From NCBI GenBank assembly GCA_951406725.2, contig OX597814.1, positions 67,890,001-67,954,000 of the forward strand: a DNA stretch of 64,000 bases, written 5' to 3'. This DNA comes from Octopus vulgaris (taxonomy: Eukaryota). The notes under the pieces are model-generated. The model saw nothing but the letters and a program-made list of their open reading frames with translations. It did not search any database and had not been told where the DNA came from. Position 1 is the stretch's first letter. Every line of letters begins with the position of its first letter. Below, in pieces: positions 5,107 to 59,456 of this stretch. The position numbers and the translations under genes were made by a program.

Positions 5107-8004
5107 ATGCCGGATCCTAGGTCCTACCTCCTCACCCTCCATCACCGTTTGAAGGATCATCTACGTTCGCTTCCTGTATATTGCCTTCAGCCGTCCGTTA
5201 ATCTCTCTCTACTTCTTTTTAAAAAAAACCGCTTCTCTAGCCATGTCTCTTTCCTAAGCCGCTGCCTACATCACCGACTCATCCCTAAAGGTTTCCGCCT
5301 CCACTTCCACCCTGCTCTCCACTCGGATTCTTCCATCTTACCCATACTCCGCACCACATCTTACCGCCTTATGCGGGCCACCATTCGCTCCAATCTCTCC
5401 AAACTACATGCCATCAACCGCCTTCTTCCTCCTGCTTTCTCCACCTTCTTCTCCTCTCTGCCGCCTCTCTATGCTCCAAACACGCTACGCTTCATTATCC
5501 ATTTGAATCAACTCTTCCATCAATTTCTTTCTGATACCAAACTTCGTAAACTCCAATCACTCTTCCATTCCACCCTACCCGACGCCACTACCCCAACTCC
5601 TCCACCACCCTTCTCCCCTCCCGATAGGCTACATCCACCCACACCTAACCCCACTGCCCCTCCCTACAACCCCTTCTCCCCTCCCGTTAGGCTCCATCCA
5701 CCTACACCTAACCCTACTGCCCCGCCCAACCACCCCCACACACCTCCCCAATCCCTCCCCCTCAGACCTCCACGAGACCTACCACCCCTCCTACTTCTAT
5801 TCCACCCACCCCTTCTCCACTTCCGTCTGTTGTTACCATTCCCCCCGATCTTCCCCTCTCTGCGGCTGAACGCTCCGTCCTTGGTAGGGGTCTGCGTTTC
5901 ATCCCCCTCACTCCATCCTGTAAGGAATTCCAGACGCGAGTTGATGTCCACAGCTTTGTGCGCCGTGTCCGGTTGGGTGCGCATTACCACGACTCGCCAC
6001 CCACACCCAACGAAGAGGACGACTGCTTCACTGGCCTCGGCCGCCGACCATCCCCGTGGATGCCTGCCCCTGGCCAGATCCTAGCAGTGGATCTTTTCGC
6101 GGGCGCTTGTCAGCGTGCATTGGAGCGGTTCAACTTCTCCAGGCGCCAACGCCGCCTCAATATCTCCCCGGCTGAGCTCTTGGCTCTTCGTTCCCTCCAA
6201 CGGCGCGCTGACATTATCATCAAACCGGCTGACAAGGGTGGAGCTGTAGTGGTGTGGCGCGCGGACCTCTATAGGGCCGAGGCTTTCCGCCAACTCAATG
6301 ACACCTCCTTCTATTCCCCTCTGCCCTCTAACCCCACACGTAGCTACCAACAGACGGTATCCTCTACTGTCCAAGACCTCATCTCGTCCTCCCGTCTCCC
6401 CCGCACCGCATCCAACCTAATTGTGCGAACCCCACGTACCCCCACCATTTACTTCCTCCCCAAAATCCACAAACCCAACAACCCTGGCCGCCCCATCGTC
6501 TCCGCCTGTAACTGCCCCACGGAGCTCATCTCTAAATACCTCGACCGTGTCCTTGCCCCCTAGTGGCATCTCTTCCCTCCCACATCCACGATACCAACCA
6601 TGCTCTCCGGCTTTTCAACTCTTTCTCCTTTCCTCCCGGCTCCTCCAAAATCCTTTTTACTATGGACATCCAAAGCCTCTATACTGTTATCCCTCACCAC
6701 GAAGGACTGCAGGCCCTTCGACACTTTCTTGACCTCCGCTCTAACCCTGTACCTGACACCTCCACACTCATTCGTCTGGCCGAACTTGTCCTTACTCTGA
6801 ACTGCTTCTCGTTCGAGGGCGAGTTCTACCATCAGGTCTCGGGAGTGGCCATGGGAACGCGAATGGGCCCCAACTATGCGAACCTGTTCGTTGGCTATGT
6901 TGAGGCCCAAATATTCTCTAATTTCACTGGTCCCACTCCTGAACTATATGGTCGTTATATTGACGACATTATCGGTGCCACCTCACTCTCCCGCGAACAT
7001 CTAGATTCCTTCCTCTCTTTCGTCCAATCTTTCCATCCAGCCCTCCACTTCACTTCCACTATCTCCAACACCTCTGTCTCCTTCCTCGACATTTCGGTTA
7101 GCATTCTTCACTCCACTCTTACCACCTCCATTCACTACAAACACACAGACTCACACTCATACCTCAACTTCTCTTCCTCCCACCCAGAACACACCAAGCT
7201 TTCCATCCCCTATTCCCAATTCCTCCGTCTACGTAGGTTCTGTAGTGACGACCATGACTTTGAGACTCAGTCTCAACGTATGGCTCACCCTACGTGGATA
7301 CCCCCTCACCACTATCCACACCGCCCTTGCCAGAGCACGGTCCGTGGACCGTGTATCTGCTCTCTCTCCCGAACCCGCCCTGTAGTCTCCCGCCTCCCTT
7401 TTCCCCTCACTTACCACCCCACGACCCTACGTCTCCAACGCACCATTCTTCGAGCTTTCCGTCATCTCCAGTCCGACCCGTCCACTTCACACCTCTTCCC
7501 TAACCGACCCCTCCCCTCTTTCAAACGAGCCCACAACCTTCGAGACCTTTTGGTCCATAGCTCCTTCCCTGACCCTACCTCCCAACCCGGCTCGTTCCCC
7601 TGCTCCCGCCCACGTTGCCGCACTTGCCCTTACCTCTCCAACACCACCCGCCTCACTAGCACCCACCATCGACCCTATCCCATCATCCACTCCTTCACCT
7701 GCACCTCCAGCAATATTATCTATTGCATCTCTTGCTCTCTCTGCAATTCCTTGTACATCGGACAAACGGGACGCCGCTTGGCTGACCGGTTCGCGGAACA
7801 CCTTCGTGACATCCACCTTGCGAACGACACACCGGTCTCACGCCATTTCCGCTCCACCGGTCACTCCTTGCAACACCTATCTGTGTTCGGTTTGTCCTTA
7901 CACAGAGGCCATCCGGATTCCCGTTTGCGCCGTGAACAGGAATTAATCTTCTCTCTTCGCTCTTATACGCCATTTGGTCTCAACTCTCCCCCCTCCTCAT
8001 CTAA
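5107..8004 (+). pseudogene. Penelope-like element (Neptune-like) RT + GIY-YIG endonuclease ORF, frameshifted
   Basis: Motifs IIIKPADKGGAVVV, YFLPKIHK..PGRPIVS, MDIQSLYT, GVAMGTRMGPNYANLF, YGRYIDD (RT), C-rich linker CSRPRCRTC and NIIYCISC..C..LYIGQT..RLADRFAEH (GIY-YIG). Frameshifts near 5790, 6560, 7290-7365 and ~7990. Confidence 0.95.
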
Positions 8005-9201: not shown

Positions 9202-9291
9202 TCAGAGGACATACTAAGTATGTCTACCTACTAGTAATAACAGGCAAAACTCTTATTTCCAGCAGATAAACATACTGAGTATGTCCTCCGA
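9202..9291. mobile_element. 90-bp hairpin MITE with TAAA target-site duplication
   Basis: Arms TCAGAGGACATACTAAGTATGTCTA and TAAACATACTGAGTATGTCCTCCGA are near reverse complements. TAAA at 9198-9201 and 9292-9295. Confidence 0.6.
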
Positions 9292-9297
9292 TAAATA

Positions 9298-9385
<88 letters not shown>

Positions 9386-9411
9386 AAAAAAGCAACAAGA
9401 ATGGATTAAAA

Positions 9412-9499
9412 TCTCGGTACGATCGTTTCGTACGAGGACATCTTTAATAAGCTACAAAAAATGCAGTGAATACAGATGGCTCGTATTCGTCAGCCGAAA
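9412..9499 (-). ncRNA. Type-I hammerhead ribozyme with long helix II (copy with A10.1-C11.1 mismatch)
   Basis: Reverse complement reads TTTCGG-CTGACGA-ATACGAG...CTCGTAC-GAAA-CGATCG-TA-CCGAGA. Confidence 0.75.
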
Positions 9500-10741
9500 A
9501 TATCAGAGAATTCCCAAACATCAAAAGGGGTAGATATACTCCTACATAGTATATATTTAACTAGAAAGATAAGTTCTAACTAGATATGATTATAATTTTT
9601 TCTCTCTCTGATGGTACTATTTGATACTTATTGACTTAAATTATTTATTTGATTTGTTTCTATTGGACCATATTATTAATAAATTAATTTTATCTCCATT
9701 TCTTAGTCTATTTTTTATCCCATTACAAATTTTAGTTAGTTAATTCTCTTAATTTCTTTTTTTAAACTTTTAAAATTAATTTCTGCTAATACCAGACCTA
9801 TCATAGTGTATTGTGATGTGATATAATTTATCAAAATAATATAATATAATATAGTGTAGTGTATTATAGTTTAGTATAATAATAATATAATTGTTTAATT
9901 TAAGATTTTCATTTAATAACATTATGTATGTTTTATAGTTTAGTATAATATTAATATAATAGTTTAATTTCATTTAAAAACAACCCCATTTTTCTTTCCT
10001 TTCTAATGACCTCTCTGTAACCTGACAATCTATTAATAGTAACATTTATGAATAAAGAAATAAATTGTTGACTTCAGTTCGAAATTGTTCCAAACAAACT
10101 TAGACTTTTTTGTTAGTATCAAATTGTGCCCATCCCCTTAGCTTCCCCTTTCCTTTCTCTTTGACATCTTAAATAGCAGTAACTGATTAAATTCCTACCC
10201 CTTCCTCCTATTTCTGTGATTCTTGAATATTTCATTAACTACCTGAACCACTACAATATAAGGCTGTCATTTTTGCTTCTCATTCGGACTCCCTAATATT
10301 TTCGCATGATTGTACCTTAAATCCCTCCACAAAACCGGATTACGAACTATAAGGACATACACAAATTTTGTAAGTTCAAGACTTTTTCATCAGATCTCCA
10401 AAAAAATCGAACTTATCTGCGATTCTTGTTAATTTCAATAACAATCTGTTCTTCTACACGACATGACAGTCACTATGTTTTTACTCAGACTTTCCTCTAC
10501 ATGATGTGGCAGTCACTTTGCCTCTTACTCGGATTTTCAGAAATTTTGCATGTCTGTATCCGAAAATTTCTTCATACAACTTGATCAAATATCCAATATG
10601 AACTATATGTAGACATGCATAAATTCTATAGGTTTAAAACCTTTCATCAGATCTCCATGAATCGAACTTTCTTCAATGCAGTTAATCCTACAACCTCTTT
10701 TATATCTACCCCTTTTGATGTTTGGGAATTCTCTGATATTT

Positions 10742-10829
10742 TTTCGGCTGACGAGTACGAGCCATCTGTATTCACTGCATTTTTTGTAGCTTATTAAAGA
10801 TGTCCTCGTACGAAACGATCGTACCGAGA
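10742..10829 (+). ncRNA. Type-I hammerhead ribozyme with long helix II, canonical core
   Basis: Helix I TTTCGG/CCGAGA; core CTGACGA 10748-10754; helix II GTACGAG/CTCGTAC extended by CATCT/AGATG and CTGCA/TGTAG; GAAA 10812-10815; palindromic helix III ACGATCGT; predicted GUA cleavage after 10823. Confidence 0.88.
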
Positions 10830-10976
10830 TTTTAATCCATTCTTGTTGCTTTTTTCCTATTTATAATCACCCCACTTGTCGTATGGCTAACACCATATCG
10901 ATATCCGGTGCATCCTAGTTAAGGACCATATTCATGTGAATTCTTTAGAATTCACTAGAATCTCAATTACTTAACC

Positions 10977-11038
<62 letters not shown>

Positions 11039-11062
11039 CTATGTGTGTGTGTATATATGTAC

Positions 11063-11110
<48 letters not shown>

Positions 11111-12523
11111 CCTACATTAAAAACCTACATTCAACTTGAAGGAGCATATAATGAATTTTGGTATAACTCCTACAATTAAGCTTGTTTGTCCATCCAAACT
11201 TGACATGAGTAGATTAAAGAAAAAATAATATTTAAAAATATATCTAAGGTGGAAATTATACATGGGACTCACCACCTGACAAAATAAAGATGACATTTTG
11301 CATTGGTTTATTCAATTGATAATAAATACAATATCTCTTTCCTTCAGTTTGATATAGGTATTTACTACTCTTCCATCTCACCTATACTCCCGAACAAAGT
11401 CCTTATTTTTACTCAACAATTACAGACTTGACGAAAGTGCTAGTTGATATTGAAACTGCTTGGATAACTTCGACATCACAATAGGATCATAAGACTCGCT
11501 GCAGGCCACTGACTTGGTCGAATTATTCTTACTGTACCAGTTAAAGGATGAACGATTAACTCAAAGACCTCGACGAGGACAACATTCTTAACAGCTACTT
11601 ACACATCAATATCACTTGGAAGACTCCGTTAAAGAGTACGTAGATGTTTTAGAGAATATCACCTTCCCCTGTATTTGGAAAAGAATATTAAATAAGTTAA
11701 TTTCCAGCACATCACGCTAGATCTTTGTATTGGACTATAACACTCCTGCCATAAAAAAAAACAAAACGTGAAATCACATTATATTCATCAACTCTCCAAG
11801 AACCATAAGCCTATAATTAAGAGCTTGATTGAAATTCTTACCACTCTTGTCTCAAAACGTTTAGTTAAGGAACGGTGTTCTACGGATGGTGCTGATAGTT
11901 ATAACGAAGAATCGGATATAATAAAAGTAATACTTACATGCATATATAATAGTAAATGCACAAACTTAGTACCTAATATAGCAGATCTAGTAACTATAAC
12001 ATTATATTTAATGAGACCATAATTTTCATGGAAAATAGTAAAATGAATACATATGATAACGAAAAAACAATATTAAGTTAAACTAATCAGGATACTAACA
12101 TGAGTAGATTCATAAAGAAAAAAATACGTATAATAAAGTTACTAATAATATAAGTATAATAAACTATAGATCAATTACCCTTTGTGATGGAGAGAATTGT
12201 AATAGCAGCATTGGAAGGAATACTACTAACTTAGAGAGTAACAAGGTAGATGGAATACCTAGTCATAAGTAGGTAGTAACACAAAATCTAATCTAGCACC
12301 TAATAAATAATGATATAAATAGCAGAAAAAATTGTAATATTACTATAAGAACTAAGAAGAGGAAACATAACTCATCGCATATTGAAATTAACATATCTGA
12401 AGCATTTTGATATACTTCGAAAAAATTTCCCACCACAAACTAAATAACACCCTTTAACTTGTACAGTAAAACATTGTTACTCGAGTCCTCCAATCTCTGC
12501 TGATGATATTTCTGCCACTAATA

Positions 12524-25794: not shown

Positions 25795-25831
25795 TGTTTT
25801 GCGTTTCGAGCAAAGCTCTTCTTCAGAAACA
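25795..25831 (-). ncRNA. Minimal hammerhead motif (CUGAAGA core; U16.1 changed to C)
   Basis: Reverse complement TGTTT-CTGAAGA-A-GAGC(TTT)GCTC-GAAA-CG-CA-AAACA. Confidence 0.6.
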
Positions 25832-35160: not shown

Positions 35161-36881
35161 AATTAAAATATAATTACAGGTAAATAAAGTGTTTACTAGC
35201 TTAAGTTTTATTTGTAAAATATAGTTGTTTTGAATTTGCAACAGAAAAGCGGTGAAGTTGTGTGAGGAGGTGCTAGGAATGTGATCTGGAAACTACTGCT
35301 TTAGGTGGTGCCTCAACATAGCTGCTGTGCAATAAGTTCAAGAAATAAAAAAAGGTAAACACGGCTTAAAGCGATGTTGGTTTTCAAATGCTCGTAATGC
35401 ATTTTATCAAAATTAATAGAAAATTAAAGTATATGATTTTGCTATTTAGGAAAAATGAATCCTGCTATTCTAAAACTCAAATGCCCTTTAATATTTTTTA
35501 TGTCTCAAGGCTGGATTTAAATTAATACTTAAGAGCTCCTATTTTCTAACAAAATATGCCTTGTGAGTTAGTCGAAAATTGCTTTTCAGCAGACAATTAA
35601 GATTAGGTATGCGCAGCACTACAGTAAGCTACAGAAAGAAATTCTAAATTTGTGTTCCGGTTCAGGTTTTTCTTTATAAGTTTCGTTGCTAATAATTTCG
35701 AAAAGACATAAATCACACGGTGTAATAAATTTGAAGCCTGTTGTCAGTGTTAAACATCAATATTATATGAACAGAAGTTCTGAAATCTAACATTAATGCA
35801 GGTGTTGTATAGTTTTAATATACATTCTTTAGCTTATAACAGTTTTATAAAATATATAATGGAGTTAAGTAACCTTATTGAATCGATTGCACGCACTTCT
35901 CATTCACTGTGTCGAGTAACATTAAGTAATATTAACAGTCTCAATACACTCTAAGCTAACGACAGCTGGAATCAAAGAAAGGTCTGCCTGGGGAAAATCA
36001 GTCTTGTAGATTAGCAGAATCATAGGAATGTCTAACAAATGTCTCCGGTATTTACTTACAGCATGTCAACGTTTTGATTTAAATACCACCGAAATTAATT
36101 TTGCATTTCCTTTTTTCGGGATCAATAAAATAAAGTATCAGTCAGGAACTGAGGCCTATTCCTATTATGTATCCGAAATCTGAAAAGAATTACAATGGAA
36201 GACAAATCAATTTGTGAGCTGAATATCAGCATATCCAAGAGCTGAGTTGTTTCATATTTCTAGAATGTGAAATAAGAACTGGAGTCATAAAAAAAAAAGC
36301 AGTATGTAATTTTATAACTACTAGTGGGACCCGGGAAAATTCCATGGAATGGAAAAAATTAAAAGGGCTTATTTAAGGAAGAAAGGATGATTTGCATTTT
36401 TCATAGCATTCATAGTTTAACTTTCTTTAAATAGCCATGACATTCGTCTACACACAGTTCCTCACGTCTCCGTCGGTGTTATCTTTTTTTTTTATTATAG
36501 TTTGTCGCTGTTCCTCTCTGATCCGTGCCCTATATCTGAGCATTCTTTCTCGGGCAGCTTATAGACAAATATCAATCTTTTAAGTGAGCCGACGATAAAT
36601 AATTGCGCTTAAGCATATGCGATGTCCGCTATAAAAAAAAAATATCAACACACCACCAACATCAGCATCACCACCACTATCTGTCTGTCAGTCCCTCTCT
36701 CTCTCTCTCTCTCTCTCTCTGATCGGTCGTGTTATTCTTTGCTCCGCAGTGAAAGATTGTTTTTGTGCTGAAAAGTTTGAAAATTTGCTGTTTTGGTCGT
36801 CGAGGCCACTTCTTTTCTGCTGTTGCAGCAGAGCTTTGCTGTTCTTTCCCCCTTGTTTCAAGGGGGAAGTGACGAAAAGAC

Positions 36882-38496
36882 ATGAATTTGCAACCAGTCT
36901 CCTCCGAGTCGGAGGAAAACGTTGAAAATTTGTTTGAAGGCATGAAGGCGAAAATGCGGGAGGAGGAAGGTAGAAGTAAAGAGACGTCTCACGCGAGCGT
37001 CACAAAAGCAGACGACAATATGTCTGGCGAAGTTAGTAAACGACAAGAAAAGGCAAAAATAAATTTTGCGAGTGCAGCAACTCGCCCCTGTGAAAATATA
37101 GTCATCAACAAGGAAGAATTAAAGAAATACCAAGGACTACTAAAAAAAGAAGGTGATAATGTGAAGTTGTTCCCTCCCAGTGAATTGATTTACGCGACGG
37201 AGAGAAAAACTGTCATATACAAGACGTATAATGTCAAAAATAAGAAAATTGACTTCGTACAGAGAGAAGCCATTGAAAAATGTTTGAGGCCGATATGGCA
37301 ACAAACTACATTTATAACAAGGGGTAGTCGCTTCGGCACGGTAGAGGTGCGTTTCCCTAGCGAAGAAATAGCTAGGGAACATTCAACAAGAACGTTGAAG
37401 TCGGAAGAGGTAGTTCTTTTACCATTTTATTTAGGAATGAGAACTAGTAGAATAACGGTTACGGACATTCCGCCCGAAATCGAGGTGGATTTTATAACAG
37501 CAGCGATTCTCTTAGGCAAAGAGGAAGAAATTGCCATTCTTCAGTCTAAAAGATATCGCCCCACAACCTGGTATGGACAGGACTTAGAGCTTGTGATCCA
37601 AGCGAACCCCTCGGACTTGGAAAAATTGCCAAGCTCCCTCACCATTGGAGATACCACCTTGATGGTAATAGTCGAGGGAAGAAAACCGAGATGCTATAAA
37701 TGTGGCGAGAAAGGCCACATACGGTCGAGCTGCAAGAAGACAGCGAAAGAAAATACTACAGAGGCAAGCACGACGCCGAAAACAACTTCACCGCTAGAAA
37801 TAGCAGCCACGTCGCGCACCCCAATTGCCGAAATTCAGCCGACAACGGGAGAAAACAACGACAACAACGATGACAACAACATCAACAACATCCAGGAGTG
37901 GGTCAACGTGGAAGCTTCAAAAGAAGACGGAAACGGAAAAATCCACCCTCTTTGGATACACAGGACTATACTCTGACACAGACAAGCACACCCACACCCA
38001 CAAATACAGTCGCAAACACACACGTAGCCAAAAAAACACACACACTGGAAAAAGCACACACAAACACTCACACACCTACCACAAGCACGCACACACCTAC
38101 AAACACCCACGCTTCTACAAGCACACACACACCCACAAACACACACACACAGCCCCCTCCACAATCACCTAACAAAAAAAAAGAAACACCTTCACGGCGA
38201 TAAATAAAAACAATAACCCATTAAGGGAAAAAATTAATTTACTGAAATCGGCGAAAAAATATATCGCAACAGATATAAATAGTATTATATCCGAAAATGT
38301 AGAATTTTATACGATAGATAACGAGGATTATTTTGAAATTAAAAAATCTTTTGCGGAGGACGCAGGCCCGTTACAGATGAACTTTTCAAGCCATCTGTAC
38401 AAGCAATTAGCAAAAAAACTGACCTCGCAAAACACAACACTCACAGACAGAAAAGATGAGGGTGAAACTACACCCTCTCTTCTGTTAAAACAGTAA
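36882..38496 (+). pseudogene. Tx1 ORF1 (gag-like, CCHC zinc knuckle), two frameshifts
   Basis: CYKCGEKGHIRSSC knuckle and Thr-rich linker. Continues in shifted frames near 37915 and at the A-run near 38175, to TAA at 38494-38496. Confidence 0.85.
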
Positions 38497-38515
38497 GTTT
38501 TAAACATTCAACTAA

Positions 38516-41500
38516 ATTTTCACATTCTCGTTTAAACTCGGTTGTATAAATATTCGCGGCCTGGGGTCGTATTGGAAGCAAGGCTACCTCCTTAACGACC
38601 TTAGGTCGCATCGTTTGGATGTAGTGGTAATTACCGAATCCAGACTGAGTGGGCTGCAGGCTTTTTCGCCCCTTCTAAACGGCTACGAGAAATACATTTC
38701 TCCCTGTCGACCTGGAGGGGGAGGAGGAGTGGCAGTGCTGGTCAGGAAAAACCTGGATTTAGAGATTAGAACTGTCTTTATAGATCCGGAAGGCAGGTTG
38801 GTCGTTTTGGATGTGACGCACAGCAGTGGTAAAGTGTTCAGGCTGGTCGCTGTCTATGCTCCCTGCGAAGGAAAAGCCGGGCAGAAAGAGTATTTCAAAA
38901 GCCTAGAGAATTTTCTTGGCACGTCGAACACGTTAGTATTGCTTGGTGACTTCAACATAATTTGCGATGCAAGCGTAGATTATGTTGGCTCAAGAAAGAA
39001 TACGAGGGATTACCTCACCTCAACGATATGCTAAGTCGTTTCGAATTGGCAGATAGATTCAGACTGGACCATCCAGACATTCCAGAGTGGACCTGGGCAA
39101 GAAACGACGGGTCGTCCAGATCTTATATCGATAGAATCATAACTAGAAGGAAAGATAAGAAAATACTTAGCTGCCCACAACACCATATCGTCAGCTACAG
39201 CGATCACAAATTAGTGACCTGTACGCTCGACATAGATAGCATGTGTAGACGAGGTACCGGCTACTGGAAGCTAAACAAGTCACTATTGGACTGTGAAGCC
39301 TACAGGAATCGGATTAAACAATTAGTAATGAGGGCGTTAACCGGATCCATTATCAACAATAAATGGTGGTACGCCCTGAAAAGAGCCATCAAATTTGAGT
39401 CAATTAGGTTTAGCAAAGAACTAGCTAGTGCTAGAAACAAAGTAGAAAAGGAACTAGTTAAGGCTATAGAGGAGGCAATGAGGTCAGGCTGTGCATCGAA
39501 AGTGTTAGCGGCGAGGTTAGCACTAGACCAACATCTCCAAGCTAAACATGAAGGGTGCATTATTAGGGCTAAGATCCGTGCAATGAGACAGGAAGGGATC
39601 AACGCAGCCGGATGGGCCCGGGTGGTAGAGGGCCAGCGTGGCAACAACTAAACCATTCGATCCTTGACGGGCCCAAATGGTCGATTAGTAAACGAACCCG
39701 AGGAGATGTGCAAGGTGTTTCATGATCATTTCGCCCAGCTATTCGAGAGGAGCGGCGAGCTGGAGCGCGGGGAGAAGCTCGCAGACTTCCTAGCCGGTTC
39801 GCCGCGTCTATCGGGGCCGGACGCGGAATCTTGTGAGGCGCCGATCACAGCCAAAGAAGTCGAGGATATGTTGGCAGAATGCGGCGGGGACAAATCGCCG
39901 GGACTCGATGGTCTGCCTTACGAACTCTATAGTAGCATGCCAGACTTGTTTGGGCACCTACTTGCATGCGTGTACACCAACTGGCAGCAGAACGGGAGAA
40001 TTCCTAAGTCTGTGAGCCGAGGGGTGGTAGCGTTGTTAAGAAAGGACCCAAACAAGGGGGATTTAATTGATAATTTCCGGCCTATCACTCTGCTTAACGC
40101 AGAGTTGAAGATCTTGGCCAAGGTCTTAGCAAAAAGGTTGGCGAGGGTCGTGGGTGAACTTGTTGGCGAGGCGCAAACTTGCGCCATCCCTGGAAGGACC
40201 ATCCACGACAATCTCCACTTTCTACGCTATGCCTTAGAAAGGGTAAATAGGATTCCTGGCAAGGGTGGGGCTATGGTCCACTTGGACCAATCGAAAGCGT
40301 TTGATAGGGTGGACCATCAGTATCTGGCGGCGGTCCTCGCGGCGGCTGGCTTCGGCCCGACCTTCCGCGGATGGATCATCGCTTTATACAGCAACATCGA
40401 ATCGGTAGTTCGGGTAAATGGTTTCCTTTCGGAGCCGTTCAGCATTAAACGTTCGGTACGTCAAGGGTGTCCTCTCTCCCCGCTTCTCTACGTTTTGGCC
40501 CTCGAGCCGTTGCTGAGGAGGTTGGAAACTATGAGAGGCACCCCGCAAGATCTAGGGTGCGGAAAGTCAGCTTCGGCGTATGCGGACGACATCACGGTCA
40601 TCGTTTCCCGAGTCGAGCACCTACAGTGGGTGGGTGAGGCCTTAAGGGACTACGAAGCGGTGGCAGGAGCGAAAGTCAACCGGGATAAATCGGTCGGCTT
40701 GCAACTCGGCACCTGGAGGGGCAAGTCGATGTCTTCCGACAGCGTCGTAGGACGTTGGACGGAAGGACCGGTGAAAATGCTTGGGATCTGGTTAGGTCCA
40801 GATCTCCAGATAGAGAAGAATTGGAGCGAGGTGGCGAGAAAGGTGGCTCTCCTAATTCAGACATGGTCTGAACGGAATCTGTCCTTGAAAGGGAAGGCGG
40901 AGGTTGCAGAAGTGTTTATCGCCTCTGTAATCACTTACCGCCTAACCGTAGTGCCTTGCCCCGATTCGTGGCTGAACAAACTGGAACGCATGCTCTTTCG
41001 CTTTTTGTGGAGGGGCAGCAGACCTCTTGTAAGGCGCTCTATTTGCTGCCAAAAGCCGCTGAACGGTGGGTTAGGGATGCCGTGGCTAAAAATGCGCAGA
41101 CATGCGCTCAGGCTTAGGCACCTCTGGATTTACCTGGACGGTGAGCAGGTGTGGTCTCCGTTTGTCAAGCTGTTATTTCCACAGTTCACATCGTTTAACG
41201 AACTGAACCCATGGATCAAGTGTAGACCGAGGTTAGGCATGTGGCATGCAGAGTGCTATCAGGCACTCGTGCTTCTCTCCCAGTCGGGCAACGCCGGTGG
41301 CGGGGCTACTACCGCGTTCTTCTATAGAGGGTTAGTAGAGTTTAAGTGTGACGACGTCCTAGGAGAAACTCTGGGCTTCGACGAAAATCAACTGGCCAGC
41401 CTGTTCCAAAGAACATTCGGTCCGGGGCCTATGGATAATTACCAAAAGTCCCTGGCCTGGCAATGTTACAGAGGAGCTTTACCGGTTCGAGATAAGCTCT

Positions 41501-41931
41501 TTAGACATGGGTGTGCACCTTCGCCGGTTTGTGCAAGATGTAAGAGGGACAGTGAAACTGTCCTGCACGCGATTGTGCAATGCCCCAAGGTGACTGAACT
41601 CTGGACTTATGTCGAACACCTGCTGTCGCATTCGAGAAGAGTACAACTGTCGAGCGAATCTGTAATTAAGATAGTTCCGCCGACCTTCCTGAATAGGGAG
41701 GAGCGAGCCTGTTTTCTTTCGGTAGTTGCTATGGCGAAAGAAGTAGTGTGGAAGACGAGAGTAAAAGGAATTGCAACAGGCATGTTTATCTCCAGTCTCG
41801 AGCTAATCGACTTTTTCGTTTTCCACATGAAACGGAAAATAAGGCTGGAGACGAAATGCCTGTCGCAAAGTGTGTTTCGTAAAAGATGGAAGTCTATAGC
41901 AAGTATGTTGCGAGTGAAAGAACCTATTTAA
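38516..41931 (+). pseudogene. Tx1 ORF2: APE endonuclease + reverse transcriptase + C-terminal zinc finger
   Basis: FKLGCINIRGL, VITES, LLGDFN, SYIDRI, SDH (APE); KSPGLDG, FRPITLLN, LDQSKAFDRV, RQGCPLSP, YADD (RT); CARC..ETVLHAIVQC. One frameshift near 39000 and an in-frame TAA at 39649-39651. Confidence 0.95.
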
Positions 41932-43655: not shown

Positions 43656-44572
43656 CCCTAGCAACAATAAATCAATCATAGAAATAATGAGAAAGAGAAT
43701 TAGAAAATTTTTCATAAACTTTAACTTAAATATTACGTATGAATATGGCGCTAAAGTAGTACATTATTTGGATACTATTTTAAACATTAACTCTAAATTA
43801 TACTACCCCTATAGGAAAGAAGATGAGGTTACAAGTTATGTGAATAAATTATCAAATCACCTCGCTAATGTATTAAAATCGGTAGTTAAAAGTATTTCTA
43901 GGAGAATTACTAAATTATCATCAAACATTGATATTTTTAATTCTCATTCATACCACTATAACGTTACTTTGTCTAAAGCGGGATATGACCAGGAAATTAC
44001 TTTTCTCAGTCCTGAAAGTTCAGCACCTTTTAATAGAGGACAAAACTGATAGTTTGAATAATAGAAAGTCTACTAACTTACTTAGTCGTGAAAAAATACC
44101 AAATGATAACCCATCCTACAATCCTAACATTTTAAATAATAATAACAGAGTATGCTTCGATAGGAGACAGGATACTAAAACAAGTAAGAAGCTTAGGTTG
44201 AATAAAAAAGGTGACGATGAAAAAGAAATGGCTACTCTTCCAGATAAGGGATCCACTAGAAATATATACAAAACTATTAATCACGGCACGATTCTAGGGA
44301 GCAGGGATAGCACAAATATATCCTGCCCTTACTCATACAAAAATTTAAAGGTAAGAATCTCGTCTGGTTCAATATCCCATACAACTACATTATCCACAAA
44401 TATATATAGAACATATATGGCTATTTTAGAAAAAAACTTCCCTACTTCCCATAGATATAATAGAATCTTTTCACGTAAAATACTTAGAGTCTAATACTCT
44501 ACTCTCCCCAATATATGTACTATCATAACTAGATTAAATAGGAAGAATATAAAATTAGCCAGAATTGTTGAA

Positions 44573-44625
<53 letters not shown>

Positions 44626-44638
44626 TAATAATAATAAC

Positions 44639-44724
<86 letters not shown>

Positions 44725-45285
44725 TAATAATAATAATCATAATGCCCTGATGCAGTATCAGGCAGTGGCTCTCGTGGCTTCTGATCTTAACTGATTGGAA
44801 GTGTTATCATGTACATTGTTTTATCTTGGTATAAAAGATAGGCTACAGCAAATATTCTGCTCAATACCACAGATTTGCTTGTCAGCTGTTTGACCATAAC
44901 CAGTTGAGCATGTCCCTTAGTGGCTGACGATATGTGCATCTCTGATCACGAGCAGAAGTAGTGGGGGAGCATCATAGCCATGCGTCGAGAGGGATTCTTT
45001 GGGGTTTGAATAATTTACCTCTGGAAACATGGGTGTTTCGTTCAACATCCTTAAACAATCCTTGTTCAGGGACCTTTTGAGCAGCATGGGTGACTCGACC
45101 AGAAGAAAATTCTATCCGGGTCCCACCTGCATTGTCATGTGCTGTTTATCTTGATATGAGATCACCATGTCGCGCACATATGGTTGTGATGCATATGCCT
45201 GGTGTACCCTTATCAGGCAGATAGTCATGATGGTCATGATAGTCATGATTAAATAGGAAGAATATAAAATTAGCCAGAATTGTTC

Positions 45286-45328
<43 letters not shown>

Positions 45329-45780
45329 CAACAATAATAATAAAAATAGCAATAATAATAATTATATTATTAATAATAATAGTACTGTCAACTATAACTT
45401 AAACCCACAAAATGAAAATAGTAGTATTGATGATGATGGGGTGAATAGAAGGAATAATGGTAACACTTCTAATAAAAACAATATGGATTGTAGTTCCAGT
45501 ACACAAACGGTCATGCAGAGGCGATTTTATGTGATAATACGATGGAGGTGGAGTTAGAAAATAACAGACGTGGAAGTGGGTTTAGCCTCAAATGGGGAAT
45601 AATAAAAATAGCTCAGCCTTATAGAAATAGCTGATATGGGTGTGAGCTTTGCTCTATGGAAACATATGAAATTTTTAAGCATAAAGATAATGGCAACCTG
45701 GCTAATAATTGGTTAGACCTTAGGATATCATGTGTACATAGTGCCACCCGTACCTTCAAATATTTTAGAAAGTAGCACTT
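43650..45780 (+). pseudogene. 5'-truncated Naiad-like Penelope element, decayed and interrupted
   Basis: HYLDTILN..YYPYRK..SNH..KSISRRITKLSSN..KAGY, NLVWFNIPY..TNIY..LEKNFP..RIFSRK, KWGIIKIAQPY..CELCSME..CVH. Confidence 0.8.
44570..45246 (-). mobile_element. 5'-truncated LINE 3' end with (ATT)n tail and 38-bp TSD
   Basis: GATTAAATAGGAAGAATATAAAATTAGCCAGAATTGTT at 44532-44569 and 45247-45284; the minus strand ends ...CTGCATCAGGGC-(ATT)n. Confidence 0.8.
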
Positions 45781-57924: not shown

Positions 57925-59456
57925 GAAGGCGCGCGGACCTCCGCCAACTTCAAGACGCCTCCTTCTACTGCCCTCTGTCCTGCGATCCCACGCCCAGCTA
58001 CCAACAGACTGTGTCCTCCACTATCCATGGTCTCATCTCCTCCTCCCATCTCCCCTACATCGCCTCCATCCTAATTGTTCGCACCCCTCGAACCCACACA
58101 ATTTACTTCCTCCACCAAATCCACAAACCTAACAACCCTGGACGCCCCATCGTCTCCGCCTGCAACTGCCCCACCGAACTCATCTCCAGATATCTTGATC
58201 ATGTCCTTGCCCCCGCTAGTGACTTCCCTACCCTCTCACATCCATGACACCAACCATGCGCTTTGTTTGCTCAGCTCTTTCTCCTTCCCTCCTGGCCCCT
58301 CTAAAGAGCCTTTACACGGCGATTCCTCACCACGAGGGGCTGCGTGCACTCCAACATTTCCTTGACCTTGGATCCAACCCCCAACCTGACACATCGAAAC
58401 TCGTTCGTCTGTCCGAACTTGTCCTCTCACTCAACTGCTTCTCGTTCGCTGGTGATTTTTACCAGCAATTCTCGGGAGTGGCCATGGGAACGAGAAAGGA
58501 CCCCAACTATGCGAACCTGTTCGTTGGCTATGTTGAGGCCCAAATATTCTCAAGTTTCACTGGTCCCACTCCCGAACTATACGTCCGTTATATTGATGAC
58601 TGTATTGGTGCGACCTCACTCTCCCCACAAACATCCAGACTCCTTGCTCTCTTTTGTCAAATCTTTCCATCCTACCCTCCACTTCTCCTGCACTATCTCC
58701 CACACTTTGAGACTCGACCTCAACTCATGGCTTGCCACTTCATCCTACGGGGATATCTCCTCACCACTATCCTCACTGCCCTTGCCAGAGCACTTCTGTG
58801 GACCGTGCATCTGCTCCCCCCCGCACACGCCCGCTGTATCCTGCCTCCCGTTTCCCCTCACCTACCACCCCACCACCCTACCTCTCCAACGCACCATTCT
58901 CCGAGCCTTCCGGCGACTCCAGTCCCACTCCTCCACTTCGCACAGCTTCCCTAAACGACCCCTCCCCTCCTTCAAACGAGCCCACAACCTACGAGACCTC
59001 TTGGTCCACAGCTTCTTCCCTAACCCAACCTCCCAACCCGGCTCGTTCTCCTGCTCCCGCTCATGCTGCCGCACTTGTCCTTACCTCTCCAACACTACCT
59101 TCCTCACCAGCACGCATCATCGACCCTATCATATCACCGACTCCTTCACCTGCACTTCTACCAATGTCATCTACTGTATCTCCTGCTTTCTCTGCCCTTC
59201 TCTATACATCAGGCAAACGGGACTCTGCTTGGCTGACCGGTTCACAGAACACCTCCGAGACATCCGACTCGGCAATGACACCCTGGTCTCGTACCATTTC
59301 CGCTCTATAGGTCACTCTTTGCAACACCTGTCTGTGTTCGGGTTGTCCTTGTACAGGGGCCATCCGTACTCCTCTCTTCGCCGTGAACAGGGATTAATCT
59401 TCTCTCTTCGCTCCTTTGCGCCTTATGGGCTCAACTCTTCTCCTTTCTTCATCTAA
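57925..59456 (+). pseudogene. 5'-truncated, more decayed copy of the C-rich Penelope family
   Basis: Collinear with ~6250-8004 (PGRPIVSACNCPTELIS, YVRYIDD, NVIYCISC..LYIRQT), with internal deletions and frameshifts. Confidence 0.93.

Follow-up and report, generated by a model that had tools for sequence, protein, structure and literature searches.

The 64,000-nt stretch of Octopus vulgaris DNA analysed here (hereafter the window) carries, at 10742-10829 (+), a hammerhead motif with a 57-nt helix II, situated near the 3' end of a truncated Penelope-like element (PLE). The features at this locus are:

9382-9538 (-): inverted, tail-less partial copy of the element (equal to 10701-10859); it holds another long-arm hammerhead (core 9493-9418) and runs out into (TA)n at ~9290-9381
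9535-10977 (+): 5'-truncated 3' arm of a putative Hydra-clade PLE (3' UTR, pseudo-LTR and tail), placed by 93-99% identity with longer copies (L071-L086) over their 3' part
10742-10747 (+): helix I 5' strand, UUUCGG (descriptor scan)
10748-10754 (+): core strand C3-U4-G5-A6-N7-G8-A9, CUGACGA (descriptor scan)
10755-10811 (+): helix II, 57 nt (fold and covariation)
10755-61/10805-11 (+): basal helix II, 7 bp (fold)
10763-67/10798-802 (+): middle helix II, 5 bp (fold)
10775-79/10785-89 (+): apical helix II, 5 bp (fold)
10793-10798 (+): AUUAAA within helix II, on the 3' strand of the internal loop; related families have A(A/U)UAAA
10812-10823 (+): G12-A13-A14, palindromic helix III ACGAUCGU (10815-10822) and A17, with the predicted cut after 10823
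10824-10829 (+): helix I 3' strand, CCGAGA (descriptor scan)
10860-10977 (+): optional tail of ~118 nt, between two preferred family 3' ends (~10859 and ~10977)
10978-11110 (unstranded): (TA)n/(TATG)n microsatellite forming the target at the element's 3' junction, a junction shared by most copies

A strict descriptor scan of both strands returned 10742-10829 as its sole good match, a second match spanning a 289-nt gap and not being credible. The parse is identical to that of an earlier note on this DNA: the core of a type I hammerhead (CUGANGA, GAAA and NUH with three helices, open at helix I), a GUA site that puts predicted cleavage at 10823/10824, a 6-bp helix I (TTTCGG/CCGAGA, including one G-U), a self-complementary helix III, and helix II at 10755-10811. 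Core position 7 alone varies (C/T/G) in our alignment, whose rows were chosen by a pattern with the other six core letters fixed. The 102-nt region around the motif has a folding z of -3.41, and for helix II by itself the folding energy is -18.0 kcal/mol (z = -4.9, from 200 dinucleotide shuffles); because the antisense strand of helix II also folds, at -15.6 kcal/mol, the strand is not fixed by energy alone. The three stacked helix II segments of the earlier note reappear in the minimum free energy (MFE) fold of the window's family (7, 5 and 5 bp), and across subfamilies the description holds for the basal and apical segments only. Its mention of other hammerheads in the window with arms of 9-12 nt comes down to one weak case, a degenerate minimal hammerhead at 25826 (-) with a 12-nt helix II and C replacing U16.1, as relaxed scans found no intact short one there.

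The window copy has no ORF: the stop codon would sit ~90 bp further 5', and the ORF is present upstream in longer copies (L075, L267, L268), with intact copies having their ATG ~55 nt beyond the optional tail. The inverted copy, absent from the earlier note, is 97.6% identical and has G10.1 changed to A. In a read-through RNA from this locus the two inverted arms would pair, at a predicted -283 kcal/mol, and since the copy lacks an ORF and such an RNA would pair both arms over ~160 bp, it is likely inert. Neither a MITE nor a DNA transposon bounded by terminal inverted repeats was accepted as the source of this arrangement, the inverted repeat being a truncated PLE copy and longer copies reaching an RT-EN ORF.

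Elsewhere in the window, a decayed Hydra-type RT fragment (11121-11857, +) lies directly past the microsatellite that ends the element, and a second decayed Hydra-type element (43660-45769, +) carries (AAT)n expansions at ~44500-44750 and 45280-45390; window scans gave no hammerhead downstream of the latter. Also present are four Neptune-type PLE pieces (33509-31579, -; 6159-7948, +; 57945-59267, +; 49121-48613, -), those at 6-8 kb and 58-59 kb being C-rich and 82-87% alike, and a LINE-like element (36873-41931, +) with a zinc-knuckle ORF followed by an RVT_1 and zf-RVT ORF.

Judged by its sequence, the host is a young, high-copy PLE of the Hydra clade with the hammerhead in its pseudo-LTR. 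The 361 bases around the motif have 1,857 candidate matches in the 2.8-Gb genome, of which the 40 scored are 98-100% identical, and copies end in (TA)n, are 5'-truncated at many points and often carry an inverted partial copy. [quoted passage not shown] The GIY-YIG of one such protein (L075) scored E = 0.0024, below Pfam's cut-off, Pfam gave no match at E<=0.01 for another (P0027), and the RT core motifs were identified by eye. The protein's clade-marking motifs are ADKTG, RIRWRT (RWK in the sister family, L271-L273), CNCRIKSKC, CQLC and CIH. Craig et al. (2021; PMC8557442) describe DKT, RWK, CxCX5C, CxxC, CxH and (TA)n targets as marks of the Hydra clade, to which we assign the element by motif comparison with that paper, on the DKT, RW[RK], CxCX5C linker, CxxC, CxH, C-terminal EN and (TA)n insertion that it displays. 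Two other clades were considered and rejected: Neptune, whose DKG and CX2-5CxxC linker are absent here and whose true representative among our ORFs (P0028) differs, and Naiad, whose EN is N-terminal. Because the EN of the octopus element is C-terminal, it does not explain the Naiad "HHR_half_core" entries (Craig et al., 2021).

Pseudo-LTR tandems, 5' truncation, the inverted 5' copy and the optional tail are likewise those of an EN+ PLE. The unit measures 4.7 kb with a 3' UTR of >1.2 kb, and the hammerhead occurs 284 nt 5' of the ATG (L267) and again ~1.2 kb 3' of the stop (L268). The two copies in the window lie on opposite strands. Two sister copies (L271, L272) are direct hammerhead-ORF-hammerhead tandems with spacings of 4,623 and 4,650 bp, and L268 is a tandem with a partial upstream copy. 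The ORF has 25 homologues, the single named one, a gene model from Octopus sinensis, covering 42% of the region at 67% identity; the homologues are 633-769 aa long, and the 1,071-aa P0027 (L267:2172-5384, -) has long Asn-rich inserts between RT and EN.

How far the long arm extends beyond this family was addressed by counting hammerhead patterns in the genome with the ACGATCGT palindrome fixed. The matches numbered 1,192 for arms of 9-39 nt, 4,516 for arms of 41-71 nt and 373 for arms of 72-101 nt, against 2 controls in each range, for patterns that leave the helices unchecked and may count some places twice. Arms above 100 nt gave 173 matches against 14 controls; among 20 such loci inspected, several were chance upstream half-cores or local duplications and were set aside. 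A long helix II is a genome-wide trait, borne by thousands of copies at more than twice the usual arm length. The large-insert class of the earlier note exists in the two upper ranges, as one end of a continuum from 19 to ~100 nt rather than as something discrete. The loci inspected belong to some ten families whose arms, 19-100 nt long, are unrelated in sequence and in some cases predicted to branch. Hydra-type endonuclease sequence was found upstream in the window's group and, decayed, at single loci of the 59-nt, 79-nt and TGTCTAC families, with microsatellites intervening between endonuclease sequence and motif at the 79-nt locus. Among the families with arms of 72-100 nt (L087-L116), some have arms predicted to branch, many have C or U at position 17, and in one the arm contains a (TAATT)n-like tract that varies.

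An abundant AT-rich family (L413-L456; 1,402 candidates) has arms of 44 nt or 67-68 nt and a weak helix I. Its copies share at least 1.4 kb of upstream sequence, and no PLE ORF contiguous with the motif turned up in the 14 that were extended; a Neptune ORF beside L343, considered as its ORF, belongs to a separate element. Both arm lengths coexist among copies 97-99% alike upstream, and the arm tip in this family is therefore dispensable and can be gained or lost. Octopus vulgaris was the sole animal genome searched; a metagenome scan gave 120 stretches, of which one passed a weak helix filter, consistent with chance.

These motifs are hidden from standard searches. Rfam reported no hammerhead at its gathering score in the whole window and none at E<=10 in 9300-11000. 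The descriptor of Cervera and de la Pena (2014; PMC4209133), as given there, limits stem II to 3-7 bp and loop 2 to 3-10 nt, with no loop 3; the 57-nt helix II and the 12-nt 3' core strand do not satisfy its minimal form. The earlier note's expectation that length-restricted searches would miss the motif is borne out on both counts. Thousands of PLE hammerheads in one animal genome thus escape Rfam and published descriptors by arm length only, and since it is arm length that hides them, ribozyme censuses and statements of "no hammerhead" should be repeated with searches that admit a long helix II.

Covariation was assessed on 33 distinct copies, chosen from 65 distinct sequences of the lineage with 57-60-nt arms. 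Changes on both sides of a pair occur at 3 of the 4 pairs tested in helix I, 3 of 5 in basal helix II and 2 of 5 in apical helix II, counts that are not probabilities because the rows are related. Overall 93.7% of cells pair, compared with 28-51% for slid controls, so that helices I and II covary above every slid control. Helix II covariation among copies, on which the earlier note had staked its motif, is present in the basal and apical pairs. In 8 of the 33 rows the first basal position does not pair, mostly as U-U, which also stands at the base of helix II in published Hydra entries (PMC8557442, File S2). The middle segment is irregular, with per-sequence folds showing shifting registers, and its pair counts are less reliable because the 60-nt rows were out of register by one column (columns later re-anchored). 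The arm folds with z <= -2 in 19 of 25 family representatives.

Conservation is uneven along the element. Seven sister-family copies have 48-70% identity in the upstream UTR, where the random baseline is 56%, but 73-93% in the arm apex and 80-100% in the 3' strand of the middle segment; the 30 nt that follow stand at 76-90% in six of the seven, and the tail (also seen in L275 and L276) at 80-85% in the two that carry it. In four distant copies the apex drops to 53-60%. With the UTR decaying while apex, 3' strand, flank and tail persist, the whole terminal block is either constrained or exchanged as a unit, and by these identities the conservation of apex and 3' strand (73-100%) exceeds what plain tolerance of the arm predicts. 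Within the arm, the 3' middle strand is 80-100% kept in eight close copies and its 5' partner 46-85%. This strand bears A(A/T)TAAA in 31 of 33 rows (17 AATAAA, 14 ATTAAA), ending 23-26 nt before the cut; after re-anchoring, five of its columns are 97-100% fixed, position 2 admits A or T alone, and the next four columns are at 36-64%. The hexamer could pair with two invariant bases on the 5' side, and a U/GU-rich tract lies at 10840-10855, 17-32 nt past the cut. We rate the conserved A(A/U)UAAA, which may be poly(A)-signal-like or structural, as a lead.

Helix III offers a view of how the motif may become active. In the monomer MFE fold, core G5-G8 pairs with the 3' half of the palindrome and helix III has a probability of 0.0, whereas an unconstrained co-fold of two copies gives a double hammerhead at -58.8 kcal/mol (compared with 2 x -26.4 kcal/mol). 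Among dimer MFE folds of the 25 family representatives, 20 have the full 8-bp intermolecular helix III, 17 also a free core and 12 also helix I, leaving five without intermolecular helix III. By prediction, then, helix III is palindromic, unstable in the monomer and paired between copies.

The palindrome itself has changed in step on its two sides. A hand tally of the first 100 listed among 2,424 matches found GATC, GATT or AATT as the inner four letters in 99, and the non-pairing AATC occurs in 8 of the 2,424. Predicted duplex energies are -10.0 kcal/mol for ACGAUCGU, -5.8 for ACGAUUGU and -6.4 for ACAAUUGU, and +0.3 for the rare ACAAUCGU. On a tree of the 33 rows, built on 142 columns that include the two columns of the trait itself, the palindrome passes from GATC to GATT to AATT and back to GATC in the window's family, whose GATC rows are nested among AATT rows with starred support; the third pair has accordingly switched from G-C to G-U to A-U to G-C across subfamilies. 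In a monomer this third pair would close a loop of 2 nt, which is too short, and its compensation hence points to pairing between copies. Dimer dependence, floated in the earlier note, is well supported by these predicted co-folds and compensatory palindrome switches. Such natural compensatory changes in young subfamilies, at a pair possible only between RNA copies, provide sequence-level support for the double-hammerhead model, and the subfamilies supply ready variants (arms of 19-100 nt and three palindromes) for testing PLE hammerhead function.

We consider it likely, on these models, that the motif is a type I hammerhead of a Hydra-clade pseudo-LTR that cuts after GUA (10823) only as a palindrome-paired double hammerhead, and that its 57-nt helix II is probably non-catalytic, tolerated and kept folded. 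A lone copy would be inactive, with core G5-G8 paired to the palindrome, and two copies would refold to the active form; a tandem transcript could supply both partners, and the element's protein may assist, as happens in anole Poseidon. Catalysis would draw on the basal helix II pairs only, an assumption from which lengthening of the arm at its tip follows.

What cleavage does for the element is less evident. None of the seven close copies that include the start of the ORF begins at the cut site, and both family 3' ends lie past the cut, by 35 nt and ~155 nt. With no 5' ends at the cut site and 3' ends beyond it, the template would be uncut or circular RNA; cleaved linear RNA was rejected as the template on the same count of close copies. 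Frangieh et al. (2024; PMC11167929) report that cleavage by an anole PLE hammerhead requires its protein and is dispensable in vitro, and by analogy cleavage may be dispensable for the octopus element. PLE hammerheads are also reported to cut poorly even as dimers or multimers. Both this reported low activity and the missing genomic trace of cutting at 5' ends would suit a catalytically silent relic, or a DNA-level element such as part of a promoter in the pseudo-LTR, where the Drosophila Penelope promoter is reported to sit, with folding incidental. We hold this to be very improbable, for compensatory changes in helices I, II and III and the avoidance of a non-pairing palindrome argue for selection on RNA pairing.

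More substantial challenges concern the arm. It could be a binding or folding platform for the RT-EN protein, or make a tertiary contact to helix I that speeds cleavage, and so be needed for activity: the conserved block comprises the arm, the downstream 30 nt and the tail while the upstream UTR decays to baseline, both sides of the internal loop carry invariant bases, and the anole hammerhead is described as cutting only with its protein (PMC11167929). However, arms are unrelated in sequence between families, span 19 to 100 nt and are sometimes branched, the 44-nt and 67-68-nt forms coexist within one family, and the published Hydra-clade elements of File S2 (PMC8557442) manage with 10-24 nt, so we regard a required arm as unlikely. 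The strand-biased conservation of the middle segment raises a different prospect. AUUAAA and AAUAAA are poly(A)-signal hexamers that obey a spacing rule, and an arm with a half-hidden hexamer would resemble the HIV polyA hairpin. A second job for the arm would be to hold the poly(A) signal of the pseudo-LTR, half hidden in a weak helix, with some transcripts ending as mRNA and others reading through to the tail as templates. Favoring this are the near-fixed hexamer with its A/T-restricted second position beside variable columns, the better-kept 3' strand, and three other long-arm families in which a hexamer ends +12, +13 or +27 past the cut (9/18, 9/13 and 24/29). Yet the sequence is AT-rich and its rows related, the two invariant 5' bases make a structural motif fit equally, most other long-arm families have no hexamer inside the arm, and a weak test for poly(A)-tailed copies gave 0 matches in the genome and 4 in the control. 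We therefore judge this second job quite unlikely, and less probable still its fullest form, in which helix II would be a regulatory arm partly masking a poly(A) signal 25 nt before the cut, one RNA element choosing between polyadenylated mRNA, read-through template and dimer-triggered self-cleavage.

The tolerated, folded arm on a dimer-dependent hammerhead, which we continue to prefer, has relatives in several described systems. The metazoan PLE hammerheads of Cervera and de la Pena (2014; PMC4209133) share, as presented there, the type I form, the pseudo-LTR setting, a palindromic 15.2-16.2 region, proposed action as dimers and closely spaced pairs on opposite strands; they differ in a helix II of 6-8 bp with a short loop, and the accompanying descriptor cannot match the octopus motif. 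The newt and axolotl double hammerheads (Cervera and de la Pena, 2020; PMC7229834) have a weak, palindrome-capped helix III and cleave better as dimers, but the axolotl motifs are described as lying in short non-coding tandem repeats, with the loop 1-loop 2 contact retained. In anole Poseidon (PMC11167929), internal reverse-transcription starts are likewise reported, giving two 3' ends and a tail, although the hammerhead there is short and overlaps the ORF start. The nearest parallels in arm length are the Selaginella PLE-X1_sMoe, with a 9-bp stem and 35-nt loop for 53 nt in all, and PLE-X1_sTam, with a 29-nt loop (File S2, PMC8557442), where the PLE-X1 hammerheads are marked as deviating from canonical structure. 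They belong to plant, EN-minus, rDNA-targeting elements of another clade, as single consensus entries presented without covariation or dimer analysis; their 35-nt and 29-nt loops, being already listed, are nevertheless a precedent for a long arm. We found no description of long-arm hammerheads in animal PLEs in the literature consulted, though Lunse et al. (2017) and Arkhipova et al. (2017) may list variants.

The closest comparison is with the Hydra-clade PLEs of Craig et al. (2021; PMC8557442), which in the portions relevant here share the C-terminal GIY-YIG, DKT, RW[RK], CxCX5C, CxxC, CxH and (TA)n targets, along with a type I hammerhead in sense orientation close to the 3' end, a helix II whose base is G-C or U-U, and an inverted 5'-truncated copy. 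By eye, several Hydra magnipapillata entries of File S2 have AATAAA, ATTAAA or a near variant right after helix I, followed by GTTGTTTTT or GTTTTTT; there is a hint that hexamers resembling a poly(A) signal could be a general companion of the hammerhead. The differences are of scale. The octopus unit is 4.7 kb with a 1,071-aa ORF bearing Asn-rich inserts, whereas the Hydra-clade elements described are mostly <3 kb; its tail measures ~118 nt, where 30-40 bp is the figure stated for PLEs; its helix III is a perfect 8-nt palindrome, unlike the Hydra rows; and its helix II is 57 nt, compared with 10-24 nt (stem, loop and stem) in the 26 Hydra rows of File S2, among them an octopus element with a helix II of 22 nt. 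A palindromic helix III is a known PLE design, and the host element, the architecture and the mechanism are otherwise known as well; going by the entries compared, it is the length of the arm that falls outside the published range for the Hydra clade.
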